IMG/VR virus record: IMGVR_UViG_3300023504_000004
Location: 16,857-80,856 of that record
DNA from: a virus
DNA: 64,000 nt
Strand: one strand, 5' to 3'
Each line of letters starts with the position of its first letter. Position 1 is the first letter of the stretch. Below, piece after piece: positions 1,907 to 47,574 of this stretch. Under the pieces are notes generated by a model, which searched no databases, was not told the DNA's origin, and saw nothing but the letters and a program-made list of their open reading frames with translations. A program made the position numbers and the translations under genes.

Positions 1907-3550
1907 ATGGTAAATATGTTTACAGATAACAAAGATTTCTACCCAACACCACAAAATCTTATAGATAAAATGCTTGATGGTTTGGATTGGAAAATGATAC
2001 ATACGGTTCTTGAACCATCAGCAGGTAAGGGAAATATTGTTGAAGCATTAACGAAAAAGGAAGATTTTAATAACAGATGGTACACAACAATTAAGTTAAA
2101 TATTGACTGTATAGAGAATGATATAAATTTACGAGCAGTATTAAAGGAAAAGAATTTCAGAGTTGTACATGATGATTTTTTGACATACGACACAATGAAG
2201 GAATATGACTTAATCATTATGAATCCTCCGTTCTCAAATGGATGTAAACATCTGTTAAAAGCATTGGAAATGCAACAGAGAAATGGCGGTGCTGTTATTT
2301 GCCTACTTAATGCAGAAACATTAAAAAATGAATGCAACAATGAAAGAGTAATGCTGAATAGAATGTTAGAAGAATACAATGCAGACATTCAATATATTCA
2401 AGATGCTTTCACGGACGCAGAGAGAAAAACAAGTGTTGAAATTGCATTGATAAAAGTAAAACTTCCAGAAGTCCACAGAGAATCATTCATATTTGATAAC
2501 TTAGAGAAAGCGAAAGAACATAGAGAGTATACATATAATGCGGAGAATACGCAGGTCGCAGAAAATGATTTTCTAATGGTAATTGTTGAACAATATAAAA
2601 CGGAAGTCGAAGCTGGTATAAGACTTATCAAAGAGTATTATGCAATGTCACCACATATTCTATATCAGTTTGGCAAAGACAAAAAAACAGGAGAAACAAT
2701 ACAAACTGGTGGATGCGTATTAAGTCTTAGCATTGGGAAAAATAGTGCATCGGTAAATGAATACATAAGAGAAATTCGTGGTAAATATTGGTCGGCATTA
2801 TTTAAAAATCCAAAGTTTATTGGACAGCTTACTAATAATTTGCAAAGAGAATATTACAGTAAGGTGGAGGAATTAAAAGATTATGAGTTCTCATTGCATA
2901 ATATCTATGAATTGAAGATTGATATGAGTAAAAAGGTTATTAAGGGAATTGAAGATACTATTGTTTCACTCTTTGAAGAACTTAGCAACAAATATTCATA
3001 TTATGATGAGTGTTCAAAAAACATTCATTACTTTAATGGATGGAAAACAAATAAAGCATGGATTATAAATAAAAAGGTAATCATTCCATTAAGAGGTTGG
3101 AAAGACTTGGAATATTCATGGGGTGGATTTAAGCCAACGAATTATGATGTTGTAAGCAAATTAAGAGATATAGAAAAATGTTTCAACTATCTCGATGGCG
3201 GAATGACAGAAGCAGTTGACTTAGATCAGTCATTACAGTTTGCAGAAGAATATGGTGAGTCAAAAGACATTATACTGAAGTATTTTAATGTAACCTTTTA
3301 CAAGAAGGGAACTTGTCATATTACATTCACAAATGATGAACTGTTAAAGAAATTTAATATCTTTGGAGCACAGCATAAAGGTTGGCTACCACCTTCATAT
3401 GGTAAGAAAAAATACAATGATATGTCAGCAGAAGAAAAGGCAGTTGTAAATGAATTTGAAGGCGAAGCTGAATATAACAAGGTAATGTGTAATACAAGTT
3501 ATTATCTTGCAGATACAAATTCAATGTTAATGCTGAATATGGCAGAATAG
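1907..3550 (+). CDS. SAM-dependent N6-adenine DNA methyltransferase (gamma-class order: motif I then NPPF) with a ~300-aa C-terminal extension
   Basis: Motif I-like 'LEPSAGKGNIV' followed by catalytic motif IV 'IIMNPPF'. SD 'aaaggaaatggtaaat' precedes the ATG. No adjacent restriction endonuclease gene. Confidence 0.75.
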   Translation: MVNMFTDNKDFYPTPQNLIDKMLDGLDWKMIHTVLEPSAGKGNIVEALTKKEDFNNRWYTTIKLNIDCIENDINLRAVLKEKNFRVVHDDFLTYDTMKEYDLIIMNPPFSNGCKHLLKALEMQQRNGGAVICLLNAETLKNECNNERVMLNRMLEEYNADIQYIQDAFTDAERKTSVEIALIKVKLPEVHRESFIFDNLEKAKEHREYTYNAENTQVAENDFLMVIVEQYKTEVEAGIRLIKEYYAMSPHILYQFGKDKKTGETIQTGGCVLSLSIGKNSASVNEYIREIRGKYWSALFKNPKFIGQLTNNLQREYYSKVEELKDYEFSLHNIYELKIDMSKKVIKGIEDTIVSLFEELSNKYSYYDECSKNIHYFNGWKTNKAWIINKKVIIPLRGWKDLEYSWGGFKPTNYDVVSKLRDIEKCFNYLDGGMTEAVDLDQSLQFAEEYGESKDIILKYFNVTFYKKGTCHITFTNDELLKKFNIFGAQHKGWLPPSYGKKKYNDMSAEEKAVVNEFEGEAEYNKVMCNTSYYLADTNSMLMLNMAE

Positions 3551-16392: not shown

Positions 16393-16770
16393 ATGAAGAT
16401 ACTTGGAAGCTTTGTAGATTGTGTTTATGAGTCACATTTATATAAAGAGGATATTGGAAATATTAGAACAAAACTTATAAGTAGATTACCAGATAAAAGA
16501 ATCTGTGAAATGGCAAGTGTACTTATAATCGACACAAAATATGATGCATATGTTGTAAAAATACGAAGACCTGAACTGAATAGTAGTGGATGTGTTGATA
16601 TAGAAAAGACTCATAAGAAAATTTACGAAACTGATTTTATCGAAATTTCAAAAAGAGATTATGAAGGATTAGATTGGAGAGAAGCTGCTAAGAAAACGGA
16701 AGAATTAATTGAACTAGGATCGTTCGTTATTTTTAAAACAGATATTGATATAGATGTATTAATTAAATGA
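16393..16770 (+). CDS. Hypothetical protein
   Basis: ORF with SD 'tttggaggtaatgat'. Confidence 0.5.
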   Translation: MKILGSFVDCVYESHLYKEDIGNIRTKLISRLPDKRICEMASVLIIDTKYDAYVVKIRRPELNSSGCVDIEKTHKKIYETDFIEISKRDYEGLDWREAAKKTEELIELGSFVIFKTDIDIDVLIK

Positions 16771-16798
16771 AAAATTGCTTTCATAAGGAGAAATAAAT

Positions 16799-17134
16799 AT
16801 GATAAAAGTATCAAGCAAATCAGGGAAATCAATAATTGCAGAAGCAATTCAGAAATATAATGGAGCAGTAATTTATTCGTATTATGACGAACTATTACCG
16901 TTTGAAAATGGCTATCATGTCAATTCCGGCAAATATTCTGTTGATGAGTTTTGTGAGGGAATAATGATCGATATTAAAGAAAAGGTAGAAGGAAATGAAG
17001 GGTCGCCATTAAATATGGTAATCATTTATACAAATCTTTCAGATATCTCGGAAATCGATACTTTATACGCATATGCCGAAAGACTTGAAGAGGTTGAAAA
17101 ATTGGTTGGTACGGTAGTAGTAATGACACAATAA
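16799..17134 (+). CDS. Hypothetical protein
   Basis: ORF preceded by 'tttcataaggagaaataaat'. Confidence 0.5.
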   Translation: MIKVSSKSGKSIIAEAIQKYNGAVIYSYYDELLPFENGYHVNSGKYSVDEFCEGIMIDIKEKVEGNEGSPLNMVIIYTNLSDISEIDTLYAYAERLEEVEKLVGTVVVMTQ

Positions 17135-17180
17135 GCTGCGTAATAATGACGAAGTGATTGAGTAAGAGATTGTTTCGGGG

Positions 17181-17378
17181 GTGAAAATGAAAAATATTAT
17201 ATGGTGCGAAGTGTCGTGTGGTCGTTGTGGCAGAGCTGCAAATAGCTGTGATTATTATAGCCCAGACACCATACGAAGGTTAAAAGCAGAAACTAAAGAC
17301 TGGACTGACGACATAAACTATCGAGTTCTATGCCCTGTTTGTAAAAAAGAATTGGAACAAAAACAAGGTGATTTATAA
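17181..17378 (+). CDS. Hypothetical zinc-ribbon protein
   Basis: ORF preceded by 'gtttcgggggtgaaa'. Two CxxC pairs (CGRCGRAANSC ... CPVC). Confidence 0.5.
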   Translation: MKMKNIIWCEVSCGRCGRAANSCDYYSPDTIRRLKAETKDWTDDINYRVLCPVCKKELEQKQGDL

Positions 17379-17382
17379 TTAA

Positions 17383-17568
17383 ATGGAAAAGATGACATTA
17401 AAAGAATTAAATGCTTATGCTGGACTTTTACGAGAGTTACAGTTAGAATATGAAGGCAGATTAAGTCAAGGCTTAGAACCAAGTAAACGAAAGAGATTAA
17501 CAACCGTTTTAAACCTTATTATCGAAGAACGAAACAAAATAAATCGGTCGAAATATGAGATCGTATGA
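17383..17568 (+). CDS. Hypothetical small protein
   Basis: 61-aa ORF immediately after the previous stop. Confidence 0.4.
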   Translation: MEKMTLKELNAYAGLLRELQLEYEGRLSQGLEPSKRKRLTTVLNLIIEERNKINRSKYEIV

Positions 17569-17702
17569 AACCGCTCTTTCGTTCATAAAATATATTGACA
17601 AAACATTTTGTATGATACTAGAGAAATTTACTCTACAATTAGATATCTGAGAAAATACTATTAATGAAATCTGAATTTCGAGACAAGAAGGGAGATTATA
17701 AG

Positions 17703-17891
17703 ATGAGTACAGCAACATGTATTAAGGACTATGATGGTGTTGGATTCTTAAAAGAGAATAAAGACGGATGTGAAGAAGTTCATATCAAAAAAGGTGATAT
17801 AATTGAATTGGATAATCAAGGATATCTTTGGTTTGATAACATATGTTTCGGACATATGGATGCTTATCCTGGACAATATTTTAAATTTTAA
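17703..17891 (+). CDS. Hypothetical small protein
   Basis: Internal ATG of ORF 17664-17891, after 'agaagggagattataag'. A TTGACA box sits ~95 nt upstream at about 17596. Confidence 0.45.
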   Translation: MSTATCIKDYDGVGFLKENKDGCEEVHIKKGDIIELDNQGYLWFDNICFGHMDAYPGQYFKF

Positions 17892-17947: not shown

Positions 17948-17986
17948 GCTCAAAATGGAGAATAACTATTGGAAAGGAGAGATCTT

Positions 17987-18742
17987 ATGGCATTGGCAGT
18001 TGTAAAAAATGAAAAACAGGACGTGATCCAGCTTAAGGTTGTAAATGGAACCGGTCGGTTTACAAAAGACGGACGATGGATCCCGAACCCACAGAGCGAA
18101 GAGCGTTGGGTTGATCCGATTAGGGATAAGGCAGATGTGGAGCGCTGCATCGAATACCTGAAGCTCAAAGTCCAGATGGCGCATAAAAAGAACGAGAAGT
18201 TTACATCGAAGAGAAACTTGATGCTGTTCGTTATAGGAATCAACATCGGATTACGAGTGTCTGATTTGTCTGCACTCAAGTGGTCAAACTTTTTCGAGAA
18301 GGACATGGAGACATTCGTGAATGCTCGAAATAAAAAGGAAAAGAAAACCGGAAAGAAAAAACTGGTGATTCCAAACGAGTCGATCCAGAATGTGATTACA
18401 TGGTACTTGAATGAAACCGAAATTCAGCCGGAATACGACGCACCGGTATTTGTGTCTTATAATACCGGGAAAGCAATTGGACGCGATCCGGTGGAGAATA
18501 TGATGAAGGACCTGCAGTATCATCTAAAGCTCAAAGGCAGCTATAACACGCATAGCTTGCGGAAAACCAATGCGTATCAGAAATATATGATGTTGGTCGA
18601 GGCGGGAGATCCATTAGCTCTTGCCAAGATTCAGCACAGTCTTAACCACCGGAATACAAGCGAAACACTTAGATATTTAGGATTGACAAGAGATGATGAT
18701 ATTAAAGACCAGTTCGCATTGGACGACTGGTGGGATATGTAA
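17987..18742 (+). CDS. Small tyrosine recombinase (phage-integrase family, catalytic domain only)
   Basis: Internal ATG of ORF 17969-18742 after 'ggaaaggagagatctt'. Motifs 'GLRVSDLSALKW' (box I Arg), 'HSLRKTNAY' (HxLR) and 'LNHRNTSETLRYLGL' (C-terminal catalytic Tyr region). Confidence 0.75.
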   Translation: MALAVVKNEKQDVIQLKVVNGTGRFTKDGRWIPNPQSEERWVDPIRDKADVERCIEYLKLKVQMAHKKNEKFTSKRNLMLFVIGINIGLRVSDLSALKWSNFFEKDMETFVNARNKKEKKTGKKKLVIPNESIQNVITWYLNETEIQPEYDAPVFVSYNTGKAIGRDPVENMMKDLQYHLKLKGSYNTHSLRKTNAYQKYMMLVEAGDPLALAKIQHSLNHRNTSETLRYLGLTRDDDIKDQFALDDWWDM

Positions 18743-18749
18743 AGGACGG

Positions 18750-18971
18750 TTATTCACCGTCCTTTGGTTTAAAAGAGATGTCTATATTGAGATTTAATGC
18801 GTTACAGATTTCCATAAGAGTTGCCAAACGGGGGCTTCCACTCTGAAAAATTTTGCTTACTGCAGCCGGTGTAGAATCCATTTTGGCGGCAAGCTCTTTT
18901 ATGAGAATATTATTTTCGAACATATATTTACGAATATCCCATAAGACATCGTTTGGAGTATTGTAAACCAT
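18750..18971 (-). CDS. XRE-family helix-turn-helix transcriptional regulator (73 aa)
   Basis: The only convincing minus-strand gene. HTH reads 'ILIKELAAKMDSTPAAVSKIFQSG'. Divergent from the MazF-like gene, with operator-like repeats in the shared intergenic region. Confidence 0.75.
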   Translation of the reverse strand: MVYNTPNDVLWDIRKYMFENNILIKELAAKMDSTPAAVSKIFQSGSPRLATLMEICNALNLNIDISFKPKDGE

Positions 18972-19050
18972 AAGTCCCTCCTTCTATATCCTAAGTATAA
19001 AACAAAAAGGTTGATAAAACAATAAAAAAGTAAATAATAAGAGGAAAAGG

Positions 19051-19079
19051 TTGACAAAAAGATAAAAAGGTTGTATAGT
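19051..19079 (+). promoter_or_regulatory. Sigma-A-type promoter TTGACA-N17-TATAGT for the toxin gene, with 3 'AAAGGTTG' repeats
   Basis: TTGACA at 19051-56, a 17-nt spacer, then TATAGT at 19074-79. Operator-like repeats are 'aaaaggttgataaaac', 'aaaaggttgacaaaaag' and 'aaaaaggttgtatagtt' across 19005-19080. Confidence 0.6.
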
Positions 19080-19113
19080 TAGAGTATCAAAAGAAAGGAG
19101 AGGAAGTGAGAAT

Positions 19114-19473
19114 ATGGAAATGGAGCTTAAAAAATACGATATTGTGATAGCAGACTTTGGCGAAGATGAATTTGCTGGTGAACAGGCCGGTATTCGTCCA
19201 TGTGTTATTATTCAAAACAACACAGGAAATAAACATAGTTGCACAACAATCGTGATGGCGCTTACAACCAAAATTAAAAAGCTCAGACAGCCTACTCACT
19301 TCCTGCTGATTCCCGGAAGCGATAATGGCCTACGACAGGAATCGATGGTTCTTGGAGAATGTATAAGGCAGATTTCAAAAGAGAGAATCATTGGTAAGAT
19401 TGGTTCTGTTGAGAATACAGATGACAGATCAGAAATCAAGCGCGTCTACGACGCGAACTTCGGGGAGGATTAA
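19114..19473 (+). CDS. MazF/PemK-family toxin (mRNA interferase-like)
   Basis: N-terminus 'KKYDIVIADFGEDEFAGEQAGIRPCVIIQNN' matches the MazF/PemK signature (GDIv.vdF.p..G.EQ.G.RP.vvv). SD 'aaaggagaggaagtgagaat'. 119 aa. Confidence 0.7.
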   Translation: MEMELKKYDIVIADFGEDEFAGEQAGIRPCVIIQNNTGNKHSCTTIVMALTTKIKKLRQPTHFLLIPGSDNGLRQESMVLGECIRQISKERIIGKIGSVENTDDRSEIKRVYDANFGED

Positions 19474-19476
19474 AGA

Positions 19477-19746
19477 ATGGAAGGCTATGTTACGATGACG
19501 GCAAAGGAAGCTATGGAGTTAGTTGGAGAGGATTCTATCGTTTTAGTTTCAGTCCAGGATCTTACAAAGAAAAATACCCTCGCCAAGTTTTGTAAAAAGA
19601 AGGGTAGAGATTGCCAGAATTTTATTGACGAGGCAAAGTTAATTGCAAAGATCGAATGTGAACTCAGGGTTTTTAGCGAAAAGCAGCCAGACCCGATAGA
19701 CTTTGAACCAAGAGGATTTCTAAGAACGGTACTCTTAAGAGATTAA
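19477..19746 (+). CDS. Hypothetical protein, possibly a downstream-encoded antitoxin or partner
   Basis: 89-aa ORF starting 3 nt after the toxin stop (translationally coupled). No recognisable motif. Confidence 0.45.
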   Translation: MEGYVTMTAKEAMELVGEDSIVLVSVQDLTKKNTLAKFCKKKGRDCQNFIDEAKLIAKIECELRVFSEKQPDPIDFEPRGFLRTVLLRD

Positions 19747-19786
19747 TTGTCAAAATAATAACACGAACAGGCGTTCGAAAAAACTA

Positions 19787-19815
19787 TTGACAGAACAAGC
19801 GTTCGGGTATATAGT
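19787..19815 (+). promoter_or_regulatory. Sigma-A-type promoter TTGACA-N17-TATAGT upstream of the tRNA cluster
   Basis: TTGACA at 19787-92, 17-nt spacer, TATAGT at 19810-15. Flanked by the direct repeat 'caggcgttcgaaaaa' / 'caagcgttcgggtat'. Confidence 0.55.
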
Positions 19816-20015
19816 AAATATTGCCAGAAGGAAATAGGCAAATAAACCAAAAGAGCCTCTACACTGGGTTGCCGCCCATTGTGTAAAAGGCTCTTAGGTG
19901 CAAAAGCGGTCACCACAACTGCCATTGCGATATCATTATACATATTTTTTTCGAAAATCGCAAGGCATATCGCCAACTATTTCCAATTATTACCAATTTA
20001 ATAGAGAAAATATAT

Positions 20016-20087
20016 TGGGCCATCGCCAAAAGGTAAGGCACAGCACTTTGACTGCTGTATTTGCCGGTTCGAATCCGGCTGACCCAG
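20016..20087 (+). tRNA. tRNA, anticodon loop 'cTTTGac' giving UUG (Gln). One C·A mismatch in the acceptor stem.
   Basis: Hand-folded cloverleaf: acceptor tgggcca/tgaccca, D-arm gcc-aaaaggtaa-ggc, anticodon stem cagca/tgctg, T-arm gccgg-TTCGAAT-ccggc, discriminator g. Confidence 0.55.
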
Positions 20088-20256
20088 TGCGCTCGGACTT
20101 ATGTCCGGGTGTCCTAACGGTCGGCGTTAGGTTACATAAGTAGAGTACAAGCTGCTCTAGGTGTGTTTAGTGCGCGCAAAATACATTCACTTGTACAGGT
20201 TTGCCTTCTAATAGGTGTACCCATCATCGATTCCCGTCAGTCTCGGTGATGGTAAA

Positions 20257-20337
20257 GCTCCAATGGCGGAAAGGAAGACGCAGTGGACTCAAAATCCACC
20301 GATTTATATCGTGTGAGTTCGAATCTCACTTGGAGCA
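20257..20337 (+). tRNA. tRNA-Leu (anticodon CAA), type II with long variable arm
   Basis: Acceptor gctccaa/ttggagc, U8, 3-bp D-stem, anticodon stem gtgga/tccac with loop cTCAAaa, variable arm cgatttatatcgt, T-arm gtgag-TTCGAAT-ctcac, discriminator a. Confidence 0.65.
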
Positions 20338-21015: not shown

Positions 21016-21675
21016 ATGGAAAACAAAAATCAAGACAAGAAAACGGTGGAATTCACACCGGAACAGATGAAGCTTGCAGAAGAGTATTGTGAACATGATA
21101 TGGCAAAGTTAAAAGCCACATGTTACAAAATTTTCGTAAAGAAAATTGGCGGTATAGACAAATGGGAATATGATGACCTTTATTCGTTAGGGTTAAATGT
21201 TCTGTGCAACAGTATTATAAAGTATAGTGCAGATAAAGGTTGTAAATTCCATACATATTTGTGCGGAAATCTTTCCAGAAGATGCGATTCATACAAGCGA
21301 GATAAAAACAAAGATAAGCGTTCAAATATTCAGGAAGACGAAGACGGAAATAAAGTCTTCTTGAAGAACGAGTCTTTTGACATGGTAAAGCAGAATGGAC
21401 AAGCATTAGAGGAATGCCTGGACTCAGGTAGTAGGATTGATGACAGCCTTGAAGAATGCTTCAATTCTCTTTATATGTCGGAAAATGTGGAAGAATACCT
21501 GCAGAGATTATCACGGAAACAGAGACAGATTGTGCTGTTGCTGGCCAACGGATATGATCGTAAGGCAATTATGATGCAGTTACGGATTAGTGCAAATGAG
21601 TATAAAGAACATATGGCGTGGATCCGTTCAGACTGTAATACAAGATATTTATACAAAAAAAGAAAGGGAGATTAA
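21016..21675 (+). CDS. Putative sigma-70-family-like transcription factor (region-4-type HTH)
   Basis: C-terminal 'LSRKQRQIVLLLANGYDRKAIMMQLRISANEYKEHMAWIRSD' resembles the sigma region 4 / LuxR HTH. SD 'ttggaggtgatctgac'. Confidence 0.4.
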   Translation: MENKNQDKKTVEFTPEQMKLAEEYCEHDMAKLKATCYKIFVKKIGGIDKWEYDDLYSLGLNVLCNSIIKYSADKGCKFHTYLCGNLSRRCDSYKRDKNKDKRSNIQEDEDGNKVFLKNESFDMVKQNGQALEECLDSGSRIDDSLEECFNSLYMSENVEEYLQRLSRKQRQIVLLLANGYDRKAIMMQLRISANEYKEHMAWIRSDCNTRYLYKKRKGD

Positions 21676-21677
21676 TC

Positions 21678-23174
21678 ATGAAGAGAAAAGTTATTGAAGA
21701 AGCTGTGTCGGTAGAGTCTTACTTAAGCGATATCTCAAACGAAACGATTAGCGACAATCAGGACGTACAGAGAAATTTCTGTTCGACAGAAGAATTTGAG
21801 GATGGAATTATTTTAACCGTACTTACTGGTGATTATCTTCCTTCCTTAATTATCGGAGAAATTAATTCCGGAGGAATTACGAGAAAATATCTTATCGACG
21901 GAATGCAGAGAACATCGGCACTGAGAAGATTTAAAAATGGCGCTCATAAAATTAGAAAGAAATGCGAAGACAGCGTTGTTGAATATCAGACGAAGAAGCT
22001 CGATAAAAACGGAGTTGTTGTTCGAGACGAGAATGGAGAGCCGGTTTGGGAGATTGCAACATTCGATGTTAAGGGAAAGGGATACGAAGATCTTCCTGAA
22101 GAATTGAAAAGAGAGTTTGATAAATTCCAGGTAAAGCTTGCAACATTAACAGGTTACAAAACAATGTCGGAAGTCAGCAAAAAGATTAGACAGTTCAATA
22201 TGAATACAGGAATGAATACCAATCAGAAGAGTTTTACTTACCTTGATATGTACGCCAGAAAGGTAAAAGCAATTGGATCTAAAGGCTTTTTCAAGGAATC
22301 AACTGCACTTAAGAGCAAACAGAATGATAAAGGAGCTTGCGAGAGCATGATTCTCAGGTCGATTATGACTGTATTCCACTTAGATTCTTATAAGAAAAAT
22401 GCAAAAGACGTAGCTATTTTTCTCAATACAAATGCAAGTGACGCTGAGTTTAACTTATTTCAGCATCTTGCAGATAGTCTGTGCGATGTAGTCGGCGATG
22501 CATATAAGGAATTGTTCACTCAGAAAAATGTCCCGATTTGGTTTCCAGCATATAATCATTTCTTAGAGTTAGGCATTGAGGAAAAAGAATTCAGAAGATT
22601 TCTTGATGCTTTTAAAGAGAATTTACATACGAGCACGGTTAAATGTGATTACGAACAGAAAGATCTTAACGGAGATATTACTTGGGACAAACTCGATGGA
22701 TTGCGTGGAACAACTGACAATGGTCTTGTAAAGGCAAAAATCGATACGCTCTGCCAGTTAATTGACGATTTTTTTGGAATTAAAGCTGAAGAAAAAACCG
22801 AAATCGAGGCGGTAGAAGAAGAGAATAATAATGAAGTAGTGGAAACAAATGAAGTAGAGATTGATCCGGTATTAAAGTTTGCACAGGACAACGTAAGAGA
22901 AACTATTGAACCAGAAGACATTGCATTATATAAGGATTTTTTGAGCGATTTTGTAAAAGATGATTCACATATTTATGAAGCAGGAGAAGAAACGGTAATT
23001 GCTTTAATGGCATATGCATCTGATATTGAAAAAGATACAGAATTCAGCGAATGGATAGACAGAGAAAATTCCAAAAATAATACATATAGTCCAAGTCACA
23101 AAACAAACTTTACATATTTAAAACGTGATTTTGATGAGTTTTTAGAGAAGAGAAATGGAGGTAAAGCAGCATGA
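21678..23174 (+). CDS. DUF262 / ParB-like nuclease-domain protein (GmrSD N-terminal-domain-like), 498 aa
   Basis: Motif 'YLIDGMQRTSALRRF' resembles the DGQQR signature of DUF262/ParB-like NTPase domains. SD 'aaagggagattaatc'. Confidence 0.45.
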   Translation: MKRKVIEEAVSVESYLSDISNETISDNQDVQRNFCSTEEFEDGIILTVLTGDYLPSLIIGEINSGGITRKYLIDGMQRTSALRRFKNGAHKIRKKCEDSVVEYQTKKLDKNGVVVRDENGEPVWEIATFDVKGKGYEDLPEELKREFDKFQVKLATLTGYKTMSEVSKKIRQFNMNTGMNTNQKSFTYLDMYARKVKAIGSKGFFKESTALKSKQNDKGACESMILRSIMTVFHLDSYKKNAKDVAIFLNTNASDAEFNLFQHLADSLCDVVGDAYKELFTQKNVPIWFPAYNHFLELGIEEKEFRRFLDAFKENLHTSTVKCDYEQKDLNGDITWDKLDGLRGTTDNGLVKAKIDTLCQLIDDFFGIKAEEKTEIEAVEEENNNEVVETNEVEIDPVLKFAQDNVRETIEPEDIALYKDFLSDFVKDDSHIYEAGEETVIALMAYASDIEKDTEFSEWIDRENSKNNTYSPSHKTNFTYLKRDFDEFLEKRNGGKAA

Positions 23175-39282: not shown

Positions 39283-39648
39283 ATGGTTGAAGAGCTGCAA
39301 GGCATTACTCTTACAAAAGATAATATCCAGTTTCCTGCGCATTTTTACAGAACAAAAACAGGGAAAATTGGTGTTAAGGAGGTTACAAATCAGAAAGTCG
39401 TAGATGAAATAAAGCGAGGAATTGAGTGGCTACGGAGTGAAAAGAATGAATATTATTGGTTTACAAAATATGGAGACCTCTTTCTAATTATATTTAAACA
39501 CGATGGAGGCGGAAAATATAACGTGTTGGTTACGAGGGACTGGTATGAAACAGATATCCCATTCGAAGAAGATGATTACAAATGGGATGAGAAAAGGCTT
39601 TCAGAAGATGATGACGACATGGGGTGGGGAGGAGATGATAATTTATGA
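39283..39648 (+). CDS. Hypothetical protein. The ORF is open upstream to 39082 and there encodes a zinc ribbon, but no canonical start codon is present.
   Basis: Listed ORF from the first ATG. The in-frame upstream stretch (39082-39282) encodes ...YCDQCNSELEITKEDTHIGWLGARFVTCPCCGEES... It follows the SD 'tttcaggaggtg' (39088-39099) but contains no ATG, GTG or TTG. Confidence 0.45.
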   Translation: MVEELQGITLTKDNIQFPAHFYRTKTGKIGVKEVTNQKVVDEIKRGIEWLRSEKNEYYWFTKYGDLFLIIFKHDGGGKYNVLVTRDWYETDIPFEEDDYKWDEKRLSEDDDDMGWGGDDNL

Positions 39649-41258
39649 CGGATTTAGAAACTTGGTTCCTTGATTTTGGCGATGATCATATTTTCAGATT
39701 ATACGATCCATTTTCAATTCGCGTAGTGGAAAAAGTGCGAATTAATAATATGATTGAACTTCCAAACAAAGATGTACTAATTGAATATTCGGAAGTTAAT
39801 AGCGAAGAAGATTTTAATGCAGAATGGGGTAAAGCACCTTTATGTTATAAAAACTCAGTGAGATCAAATTGGAGTATCATCCGCATGATAATCAATTTTG
39901 TTCAAATGCAACTGCCTTACCAGCAACCGAGTAAAGGAGAAAAAATGAGTTGGAATCCTGTGCTGAATAAATTTATTGAAATAAAAAATACATATAAAAA
40001 TAAAATTGGCGAACCAACCTATTCTTATAAATCTGGCTATACAGATGAATCAAAAACATGTCTCGAGCGATGGGTTGAAGAGTTAATTGAAAAATTCCCA
40101 GATAAGCAATTCCAGCAGTACGAAGAACTTCTTTCTTGCTTGGAAATGAATCAATGGAATCAGTTTTTGATAATTAGATATGCCAGATATAGTAATGTAT
40201 ATGACGGTGAGGTCGAGTCTTCTGGCGAAGATTTTTGGGACAGATATAGCGGATTTTATAGAGAATGCAGGAGTGTTGTTATTGACGTTGTAAATGATAA
40301 AATTGTATTAGCACCATTTAAGAAATTTTTTAACATCAATGAACTTGAAGAAACTCGTCTGGAGAATGTAGAACGCAGAATTGCTACCGCGACAAATGTT
40401 GAATTTTCTAATAAACTTGATGGCTCAATGCAATCGGCAACGTGGTATGATGGTCGGATTATTATGGCTGGAAGTCAGGCAATTGATCCAAGTAATTCAT
40501 GGAGATTGCAGGAAGGTTATAGAATGCTTGATTTGCGTCCAGGTTATAAGAGAATGCTGACCGAACACCCTGGTCTGACTTTTATTTTTGAATATATTTC
40601 GCTTAAAGACGCTCATGTTGTTAAATATAAAAAAGAGCAAGAGGGACTATATTTGATTGGCGTGAGAAACAATAATGACGGCAGAGAGTTACCGTACCGT
40701 TCTGTTTTAGATGTCGCATATGTTTATAATATTCCAACAACGGAGATTTTTGATAAAACATTAGACCAGGTAATGGCAGAACTTGATGAAAAATCTTCTG
40801 ATGAAGCAGAAGGGTTTGTCATTAACATTGATGGATATAAGGTTAAAGTCAAGTACAATGACTACGTTCATATCCATAAAGCTTTATCTAAATCATCCTC
40901 AATAAATCTAATCATTAAGTCTATTGCAGACGATACGTTCGACGACCTTCTTTCGAAACTTCCAGAAGCTTATCATGACAATGTAAAAAGAGTTGCAAAT
41001 ATTGTTTTTAATTATATTTGTGACACTGAGAATATCATTAGAAAATATTATAACGAAGCGCCAAAGAACGATAAAAAGAAATTTATGATTTGGGTCAATT
41101 CTAATGTTCCCAAAAAATATCGCGGATTCTGTCGATCTTTGTATCTCGGAGATCCAATTAATGTATTAAAAAAACATAATGGTTCTGGCTATTTAAAACT
41201 TAAAGATATGGGTATCGAGGATTATGGAAAACTATTTGTAAACAATGAGAACGAATAA
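39645..41258 (+). CDS. ATP-dependent RNA ligase (Rnl-type nucleotidyltransferase)
   Basis: Motif I 'SNKLDGSMQSA' (KxDG). Motif IV/V 'EGFVINIDGYKVKVKYNDY' (EGxV...KxK). 537 aa. Start overlaps the upstream stop (ATGA). Confidence 0.65.
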   Translation: MTDLETWFLDFGDDHIFRLYDPFSIRVVEKVRINNMIELPNKDVLIEYSEVNSEEDFNAEWGKAPLCYKNSVRSNWSIIRMIINFVQMQLPYQQPSKGEKMSWNPVLNKFIEIKNTYKNKIGEPTYSYKSGYTDESKTCLERWVEELIEKFPDKQFQQYEELLSCLEMNQWNQFLIIRYARYSNVYDGEVESSGEDFWDRYSGFYRECRSVVIDVVNDKIVLAPFKKFFNINELEETRLENVERRIATATNVEFSNKLDGSMQSATWYDGRIIMAGSQAIDPSNSWRLQEGYRMLDLRPGYKRMLTEHPGLTFIFEYISLKDAHVVKYKKEQEGLYLIGVRNNNDGRELPYRSVLDVAYVYNIPTTEIFDKTLDQVMAELDEKSSDEAEGFVINIDGYKVKVKYNDYVHIHKALSKSSSINLIIKSIADDTFDDLLSKLPEAYHDNVKRVANIVFNYICDTENIIRKYYNEAPKNDKKKFMIWVNSNVPKKYRGFCRSLYLGDPINVLKKHNGSGYLKLKDMGIEDYGKLFVNNENE

Positions 41259-46367: not shown

Positions 46368-46428
46368 ACAATATGGTGTGGTGCTGGATTTCGATTCAGT
46401 GCTACACCAGAAAAGAGAATAAATATAT

Positions 46429-46500
46429 AGCGGATTAGTGTAATGGTTAGCACGGGAGACTTTGGATCTCCAGACGTGAGTTCGAATCTCACATCCGCCG
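46429..46500 (+). tRNA. tRNA, anticodon loop 'cTTTGga' giving UUG (Gln-like). A1·C72 mismatch.
   Basis: Hand-folded: acceptor agcggat/atccgcc, U8, D-arm gtgt-aatggtta-gcac, anticodon stem ggaga/tctcc, variable agac, T-arm gtgag-TTCGAAT-ctcac, discriminator g. Confidence 0.55.
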
Positions 46501-46564
46501 TTAATAAATACAATTTGGGAGGTAGATACTTATTTATAGCGATTGGAAAAACGAATATAAAGAT

Positions 46565-47442: not shown

Positions 47443-47531
47443 GCGAACTTAACTCAACTGGTAAGAGTCACGGCCTTATAAGCCGTATGCCCTGGCAAGG
47501 TTTAAACTCGGTTCGACTCCGAGAGTTCGCA
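47443..47531 (+). tRNA. Type II (long variable arm) tRNA, apparent anticodon UAU (loop cTTATaa), 89 nt
   Basis: Acceptor gcgaact/agttcgc, D-arm actc-aactggtaa-gagt, anticodon stem acggc/gccgt, ~20-nt variable arm with internal tgcc/ggca stem, T-arm ctcgg-TTCGACT-ccgag, discriminator a. Confidence 0.55.
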
Positions 47532-47574
47532 CTGCAGCAATGCAAATATAATATTTTAAAGGAGGATTTCTATT

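Follow-up and report, generated by a model that had tools for sequence, protein, structure and literature searches.

In the present study, we analysed a window of 64 kb of phage DNA (positions 16,857 to 80,856 of the IMG/VR virus record IMGVR_UViG_3300023504_000004), in which the gene of a MazF/PemK-family endoribonuclease toxin is followed directly by a small open reading frame (ORF) of 89 amino acids (aa), named ORF89; all coordinates without a further label are positions in this window. Our findings suggest that mazF and orf89 probably form an operon of two genes that behaves like a reverse-order type II toxin-antitoxin pair and is integrated into the phage's lysogeny switch. In this pair, ORF89 would probably be the neutraliser (antitoxin) of MazF, under the control of the phage immunity repressor. 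The MazF toxin-antitoxin kind is known; the reversed order, the partner family and the external regulator of immunity type are new. The whole MazF clade is paired with this downstream, unannotated and fast-evolving small protein without known fold or domain.

Results

The toxin gene (19114-19473, plus strand) encodes 119 aa. A first-pass annotation, made from the DNA letters alone, had placed the product in the MazF/PemK family and proposed a check against the profile PF02452, and this assignment was upheld. The product matches PF02452 (PemK_toxin) with 79.8 bits, above the curated cut-off of 23.1 (E = 2.2e-22), and PHROG 1936, the 'MazF-like growth inhibitor' family, with E = 3e-20. Residues 3-100 align to the solved MazF/EndoA of Bacillus subtilis (E = 1.7e-15), with R28 and T51 of the phage protein aligned with R25 and T48, which we take to be the catalytic residues of the B. 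subtilis enzyme. Among 50 distinct members of the clade, the equivalent of the catalytic Arg is found in 50/50 and Thr or Ser at the second position likewise in 50/50, and the residues at the B. subtilis positions E20, Q21, P26, T58, H59 and E78 are invariant. In an AlphaFold2 (AF2) model of MazF fused to its partner, the MazF part has a predicted local distance difference test (pLDDT) of 80-94 and consists mainly of beta structure, with a helix at the C-terminus; this model and the sequence alignment point to the SH3-like beta-barrel of the MazF fold. The residues and the profiles indicate a bona fide MazF/PemK RNase, which is apparently catalytically competent. Self-protection of the phage by avoidance of cleavage sites was considered and rejected: UACAU occurs 110 times on the coding strand of the window and 104 times on the other strand, and no 5-mer is strongly depleted on the coding strand, a weak test, as the specificity of this MazF may differ from that of the B. 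subtilis enzyme.

In canonical mazEF and pemIK operons the antitoxin gene comes first, and we know of no textbook MazF toxin that does not follow an upstream, DNA-binding antitoxin. The phage locus is arranged otherwise. The 142 nt between the neighbouring divergent XRE gene and the ATG of MazF contain a promoter, repeats and a Shine-Dalgarno (SD) site only and no coding sequence, and five small plus-strand ORFs further upstream (16393-17891) carry no Pfam domain, in agreement with the earlier claim that no antitoxin is encoded upstream. ORF89 (19477-19746, plus strand), the partner of this MazF clade and a putative antitoxin of a new family, starts 3 nt past the TAA of MazF, exactly where the first reading had put it. 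Its SD site GGGGAGGA (19462-19469, plus strand) is embedded in the last MazF codons as a coupling signal, and no terminator lies in the gap between mazF and orf89. These features suggest that the two genes are co-transcribed and translationally coupled, as type II pairs require; the coupling had been proposed before and gains from the comparison of relatives.

For this comparison, we examined gene neighbourhoods in metagenome contigs, one cultured genome (Eubacterium segne BX4) and 80 IMG/VR loci; the homologues of ORF89 are called the ORF90 family, and labels such as L001 or L003 denote related loci. The gene order in nearly all neighbourhoods is a small minus-strand gene for a DNA-binding protein, MazF on the plus strand and then a plus-strand partner of 83-121 aa, the divergent regulator being absent from one locus, L025. 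MazF ends -4 to +16 nt before the ATG of the partner in 103/103 untruncated genes of the ORF90 family, and an SD-like motif stands inside or just after the last MazF codons at all distinct junctions (38/38). The order of MazF and partner also holds for the remotest homologues retrieved of either protein. In 64 distinct related loci, the set used also for the promoter and LexA-box counts below, the pairwise identity of MazF follows that of the partner (Pearson r = 0.82) and shows no relation to that of the regulator (Spearman 0.03).

The lineage was then surveyed in a census of 80 loci, fetched through the early gene of a ParB/GmrSD_N-like protein, of which 72 had enough upstream sequence to be assessed. 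Since the loci were fetched through this separate gene, the sample is independent of MazF and its partner; the alignment of a 209-aa early protein was too divergent for pattern search, and the ParB/GmrSD_N-like gene served as the marker instead. MazF with a recognisable ORF90 gene was found in 27/72 loci, and a more divergent MazF followed by an ORF of 83-121 aa that the ORF90 hidden Markov model (HMM) missed was found in 44/72. Only one locus (1/72, L116) was without the pair, and MazF with a partner was thus present in 71/72. The partners missed by the HMM form two clusters, which are linked by profile-profile comparison: cluster 1 matches ORF90 with 94% probability (E = 1e-7), and cluster 0 matches cluster 1 with 80% probability (E = 1.4e-5). 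The partner therefore appears to be one fast-diverging superfamily throughout the lineage, which passes beyond HMM recognition at distances at which MazF is still recognisable. The exceptional locus L116 lacks integrase, regulator, MazF and partner together (2989-3400 of that locus) and keeps the downstream early genes; it is either a natural deletion of the entire lysogeny cassette or a virulent derivative.

A further pair was observed in L003 (2091-2731 of that locus) and also in L004 and L005, where a RelB-like gene of 105 aa precedes a PemK gene of 107 aa just upstream of the integrase. As this pair has the canonical order, two MazF-family modules of opposite orders are carried by one phage.

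ORF89 had been described as being of unknown type, and the searches bear this out: it gave no match in Pfam, PHROG, NCBIfam or PADLOC, a profile search of PDB sequences returned nothing meaningful, and no gene of the ORF90 family was found in 50,697 deposited phage records plus the PLSDB plasmids. In large metagenome-derived protein sets, a word-based search recovered close relatives only; a profile search recovered 173 homologous proteins, and an exhaustive HMM search of 1.84 billion cluster representatives gave 116 representatives of the family (50% identity clusters). The homologues are all about 90 aa long, stand alone and are never fused to another domain, and from their number and uniform length ORF89 is a real gene and not a chance ORF. 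The AF2 model of ORF89, built on an alignment of 52 sequences, has a beta-alpha-beta-beta-alpha-beta-beta topology of modest confidence (pLDDT 68), and a Foldseek search of this model against BFVD returned nothing meaningful. Neither profile nor fold searches detected a DNA-binding domain or helix-turn-helix (HTH) in ORF89. Mimicry of the MazE helix, as in the phage proteins AimX and YosL discussed below, was rejected for lack of similarity: compared by hhalign with B. subtilis MazE, the ORF89 family reached a probability of 0.2%, although the test is a weak one.

Two further observations concern the junction. MazF and ORF89 are in the same frame with TAA-AGA between them (19471-19479), and read-through of the stop would give a fusion protein; this relation is probably incidental, because the frame is not conserved in relatives, where the gaps are -4, 1, 2, 3, 5 nt and so on. 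On the minus strand, a terminator-like hairpin lies in the 3' end of MazF (19455-19441) and a promoter-like site in ORF89 (19648-19619; 9/12, promoter scores being matches out of 12 to the sigma-70-type consensus). Together they could define an antisense RNA across the junction, but the scores are at chance level and the hairpin codons differ in nucleotide sequence among relatives.

The XRE gene (18750-18971) is the sole minus-strand gene in the region and encodes a protein of 73 aa with an HTH of XRE/Cro-CI type (PF01381 and PF13443, E = 2e-7), a putative immunity-type repressor of the promoter P1. P1 is a predicted sigma-70-type promoter of consensus strength that drives mazF-orf89 (TTGACA-17-TATAGT, 19051-19079, plus strand, 11/12). 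Three direct AAAAGGTTG repeats on the same strand (19005-19073, with starts at 19005, 19045 and 19065) overlap its -35 element and abut its -10 element and are candidate operators; 3 of the 4 copies in the window fall within these 69 bp at P1, with a chance expectation of 1.1 per whole window, and a pair of 35-nt repeats (80% identity) also spans the region. A promoter of at least 11/12 stands upstream of MazF in 54/64 distinct loci, 36 of them scoring 12/12, against 7/320 control windows. Where a relative has another regulator, the repeats at this site differ as well.

The regulator is also the part of the locus that changes. The relatives carry 44 distinct HTH regulators and 17 distinct regulators of the unrelated ribbon-helix-helix (RHH) type. 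A variable 'immunity' segment of the window (18765-19084) takes in the XRE gene, the operator-like repeats and the core of P1 and shares no homologous DNA with the closest relatives. When the window was compared by blastn with its closest relative, L026/L110, and with L003, homology covered the integrase, stopped at 18764 or 18743 and returned some 14-29 nt ahead of the start codon of MazF (at 19085 or 19100), to go on through MazF, ORF89 and beyond. Between L018 and L019-L021 the partner is identical and MazF about 96% identical, whereas the regulator is an 86-aa HTH protein in the former and a 72-aa RHH protein in the latter; the integrases differ, and DNA homology (96.6%) begins about 50 bp before the MazF ATG. 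Among locus pairs with MazF at least 90% identical, 36% have regulators less than 40% identical. By these comparisons regulator, operators and promoter core are an exchangeable cassette, and the swap pattern is the behaviour of a phage immunity region. Because the cassette is swapped for unrelated HTH or RHH genes beside an unchanged MazF-partner pair, the XRE protein is probably a transcriptional repressor and not an antitoxin, and the control of P1 transcription by a protein of this type is supported at the level of sequence. A type III RNA antitoxin like ToxI was rejected as well, because the repeats overlap the promoter and are swapped with the regulator, not conserved with MazF; there are only two 35-nt copies, which overlap the -35 element of P1 and lie largely upstream of the transcription start.

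On the other side of the pair, a second promoter P2 (TTGACA-17-TATAGT, 19787-19815, plus strand, 11/12) is flanked and overlapped by two Cheo/LexA-type boxes (CGAACN4GTTCG), the perfect CGAACAGGCGTTCG at 19764-19777 and AGAACAAGCGTTCG at 19792-19805, which are the only two matches in the window. A LexA-type box is present within about 110 nt after the partner stop in 49/64 distinct loci, compared with 1 box in 450 kb elsewhere in the loci; none was found in the regulator-MazF spacer of the 64 loci. P2 scores at least 11/12 in 44/64 loci, and no plus-strand terminator was found after ORF89. The genes that P2 precedes are two tRNA genes and those of the 209-aa protein, a sigma-70-like factor and the ParB/GmrSD_N-like protein. 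From the conserved boxes, the phage early region appears to be directly repressed by host LexA and thus to be under direct SOS control, and induction could bypass cleavage of the phage repressor. The MazF pair sits between the immunity-type repressor and P2.

The phage nature of the window, assumed in the first-pass annotation, was borne out by coding that is almost all on one strand, four tRNA genes, matches to many PHROG families and nearest relatives that are IMG/VR viral contigs. These closest relatives are 90-165 kb long, the nearest being a genome of 104.9 kb. The window has a GC content of 35.8% and encodes a DnaE-type polymerase, DnaB, RecJ, a RecD-like helicase and an RNA ligase of T4 Rnl1 type. 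The left flank of the lysogeny module is formed by a tyrosine recombinase (integrase) of 257 aa (17969-18742, plus strand; PF00589 E = 4e-13, PHROG 216 integrase E = 5e-35). Apart from L025, all related loci examined have an integrase next to the module, with varying position and type. Copies of the module are embedded in contigs of 300-668 kb and in a 340-kb contig of Eubacterium segne (Clostridia), which indicates integrated prophages; the search for host range among GTDB species representatives gave a single match, Eubacterium segne. We conclude that the window comes from a large temperate phage that infects gut Clostridia and belongs to a widespread lineage of human-gut phages of roughly 90-110 kb.

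Some other features were observed around the module. The four tRNA genes (20015-20088, 20257-20337, 46428-46501 and 47443-47532) are two tRNA-Gln(UUG), one tRNA-Leu(CAA) and one called Ile(UAU). A link between the module and tRNA was rejected, as the two tRNA genes beside it are not conserved at that position in relatives. The sigma-70-like factor (21016-21675) has weak matches to Sigma70_r2/r4 and GerE and a match to PHROG 351, and the ParB/GmrSD_N-like protein of 498 aa (21678-23174; PF03235 below threshold, PADLOC NsnA E = 2e-10) is conserved across the lineage. In some prophage copies, IS605-type TnpB/Cas12f-like genes are inserted near the module (L022, 2575-3720; L021, 9340-10279). The T4 Rnl1-type RNA ligase (39645-41258; PF09511 E = 9e-25, PHROG 562) is encoded by the same phage as MazF. 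RNA cut by enzymes of MazF type ends in a 2',3'-cyclic phosphate and a 5'-OH, which can be rejoined by RNA-repair ligase pathways; a functional link between this ligase and MazF is pure speculation.

Discussion

The first-pass annotation had offered three readings of the locus, in which the downstream ORF is an antitoxin in reverse order, the divergent XRE protein controls or neutralises the toxin, or the phage carries a solitary interferase. The first of them proved the best supported, by comparative evidence: the adjacency in 103/103 genes, the coupling at 38/38 junctions, the co-evolution and joint inheritance of the two proteins and the census (71/72). ORF89, however, has no likeness to known antitoxins. 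The solitary interferase is disfavoured, because MazF of this clade was never found without a partner gene.

We therefore favour, with moderate confidence, a pair in which ORF89 would bind and neutralise MazF. As ORF89 is without a DNA-binding domain, transcriptional control would be outsourced to the divergent repressor. The XRE protein would be the phage immunity repressor and hold P1 off in the lysogen, so that the pair would be made in a burst at infection or induction. Once the partner is no longer made, or is broken down, MazF would be set free and cleave RNA. Such cleavage could serve to bias or lock in lysogeny, to modulate the host or to exclude other phages; by analogy, a role in lysogeny commitment could be among these.

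Several points weigh against this picture. ORF89 is near-neutral (pI 5.5), and its predicted structure is a compact alpha/beta domain, not a DNA-binding domain with a disordered tail. The co-fold of MazF and ORF89, made as a single fused chain with X for the stop, had a predicted template modelling score (pTM) of 0.55, and its ORF89 part was collapsed (pLDDT 30-54). It gives no usable interface signal and is uninformative rather than negative, since the multiple sequence alignment was unpaired and partly misaligned, MAFFT having misplaced the first ~25 residues of most partner rows. Linkage by itself lets neighbouring genes diverge in parallel and contributes to the r = 0.82. The time of expression, in the lysogen or the lytic cycle, is suggested by the anatomy of promoter and operator only.

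The strongest rival takes up some of these points. MazF may be an early RNase that nothing neutralises and that, like T4 RegB, shuts off the host or processes transcripts; it would be restrained only by the transcriptional control of the divergent repressor, and ORF89 would then have another job, as a cofactor of MazF specificity or activity, an anti-defence protein or a switch component. P1 would suit such a role, being of consensus strength and overlapped by operators like an immediate-early promoter. The missing antitoxin-like fold or sequence of ORF89, the missing interface signal in the co-fold (subject to the same unpaired and partly misaligned alignment) and the occurrence of MazF without an ORF90 relative, in other contexts, in virulent Enterocloster phages also agree with it. 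Nevertheless, strict adjacency and coupling (103/103, and 71/72 lineage members) are not expected of a functionally unrelated and strongly diverging neighbour. Unopposed MazF made from a 12/12 promoter would probably damage the transcripts of the phage too, and neither UACAU nor any other 5-mer is depleted on the coding strand, with the reservation that the specificity of this MazF may differ. We hold this explanation to be unlikely, if the most probable of the rivals.

A more specific form of the neutralised pair, which we put forward tentatively and regard as rather improbable, is a MazF-based commitment device that the phage has internalised, in which the partner silences MazF while P1 is on and the shut-off of P1 frees MazF. 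The mazF-orf89 pair would be the first unit made from the repressor-controlled early promoter. In lytic development P1 would be on, and the coupled partner would keep MazF silent. At the establishment of lysogeny the repressor would shut P1, and the labile partner would decay. Free MazF would then transiently clear lytic and early transcripts, and possibly pause the host, so that lysogeny is locked in; induction would be served by the LexA-controlled promoter next to the pair. If this is true, the 'activation on shut-off' logic of toxin-antitoxin modules would act as a timer in a genetic switch.

The pair may also be a classical moron for prophage addiction or abortive infection, expressed in the lysogen and without a role in the developmental switch; the molecular mechanism would be that of the favoured reading, and the role would be prophage stability or phage exclusion. 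Toxin-antitoxin modules are often found beside integrase or repressor genes in prophages, some relatives carry the second, canonical RelB-like/PemK pair by the integrase, and one phage has lost the pair along with integrase and regulator. Unlike typical morons, though, the pair is near-universal (71/72) and has a fixed position in the lineage. Moreover, the repressor-type repeats over a consensus promoter predict repression in the lysogen, and neither MazF nor ORF89 has a PADLOC defence-system match. We consider this role rather improbable.

That the divergent XRE protein is itself the antitoxin, by protein-protein contact as in HigA or MqsA, would fit a small HTH protein beside a toxin gene, HTH and RHH being common DNA-binding folds of antitoxins. 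The gene is nevertheless transcribed divergently and is not operonic, it is exchanged from HTH to RHH beside identical or near-identical MazF genes, its identity is uncorrelated with that of MazF (Spearman 0.03), and 56-86 aa leave little space for a toxin-binding extension. From the earlier proposal, the part on control stands, with regulator-specific repeats that overlap P1, and the part on neutralisation falls with the exchange of the cassette beside near-identical MazF-partner pairs; we consider the latter very improbable. Finally, nothing specific favours a MazF-like protein that is catalytically dead or repurposed for a structural or regulatory task and needs no antitoxin, as could be the case for any toxin fold carried by a phage, and the invariance of the catalytic Arg, the Thr/Ser and the six other positions in 50 members, with the strong sequence similarity to active MazF enzymes, makes it most improbable of all.

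In our literature search, no description of a reverse-order MazF system or of the mazF-orf89 pair was found. The published survey of MazF operons takes in upstream antitoxins only (PMC3879964), and MazF-like genes are recognised as common in gut viromes (PMC12291355). The present results offer a hypothesis of function for more than 170 'hypothetical' gut-virome proteins and for the common 'MazF-like growth inhibitor' calls. If ORF89 neutralises MazF, it defines a new family of antitoxins or inhibitors, and MazF modules would be able to hand their regulation to a separate repressor.

Compared with mazEF/pemIK (kis-kid, ydcDE), the phage pair shares the PF02452 toxin, the catalytic Arg and Thr, the tight two-gene operon and a strong, regulated promoter. 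In contrast, it is toxin-first, and an upstream antitoxin was looked for and is absent; the partner is devoid of any DNA-binding domain (AbrB/SpoVT, RHH or other) and is not similar to MazE; and control of the promoter is apparently exerted by a separate, divergent and exchangeable repressor. Other large phages of Firmicutes, among them Enterocloster phage PMBT24, Psychrobacillus phage Perkons and Lactobacillus phage 3-521, have genes of PHROG 1936, which encode MazF homologues that are 33-42% identical and have no annotated upstream antitoxin. Their contexts are quite different: in the virulent phage PMBT24 (L001, OQ326496.2, 29280-29636) MazF lies amid the tail genes and is followed by a 'macoilin family' ORF of 124 aa. 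Beside these homologues neither an upstream antitoxin nor an ORF90 relative was found, and an ORF90-family gene is present in no deposited phage or plasmid record searched; phage MazFs that are apparently without a partner may therefore be a wider phenomenon.

Other toxin-antitoxin systems share single traits with the phage module. In higBA, mqsRA and hicAB the toxin gene also stands before the putative antitoxin gene in one operon; these antitoxins, however, are autoregulating HTH proteins, whereas ORF89 has no detectable DNA-binding domain, and the toxins are of RelE, MqsR or HicA type and not MazF. The systems omega-epsilon-zeta and paaR-paaA-parE likewise combine a small RHH or HTH regulator with a separate antitoxin without a DNA-binding domain, a place that ORF89 would take here, but the phage regulator is divergent, independently swapped and like an immunity repressor, and the toxin belongs to another family. 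In contrast to ToxIN, the phage MazF is preceded by no tandem array of ~36-nt repeats, only by two 35-nt copies.

The closest parallel in the lysis-lysogeny context comes from the Bacillus phage phi3T, for which the activity of host MazF was shown to favour lysogeny and the small phage proteins AimX and YosL to block MazF (PMC10769878). As with AimX and YosL of phi3T/SPbeta, a small phage protein would act here against a MazF RNase, neutralisation by ORF89 being putative. In phi3T/SPbeta, however, MazF is encoded by the host and the inhibitors mimic the C-terminal helix of MazE (PMC10769878), whereas here MazF is encoded by the phage and the partner has no similarity to MazE. The pair is absent only where the entire lysogeny cassette is gone, and the phi3T idea of a role for MazF in lysis-lysogeny decisions becomes directly testable in this lineage. 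If the commitment device exists, it would be a self-encoded counterpart of the host-MazF circuit that phi3T manipulates.

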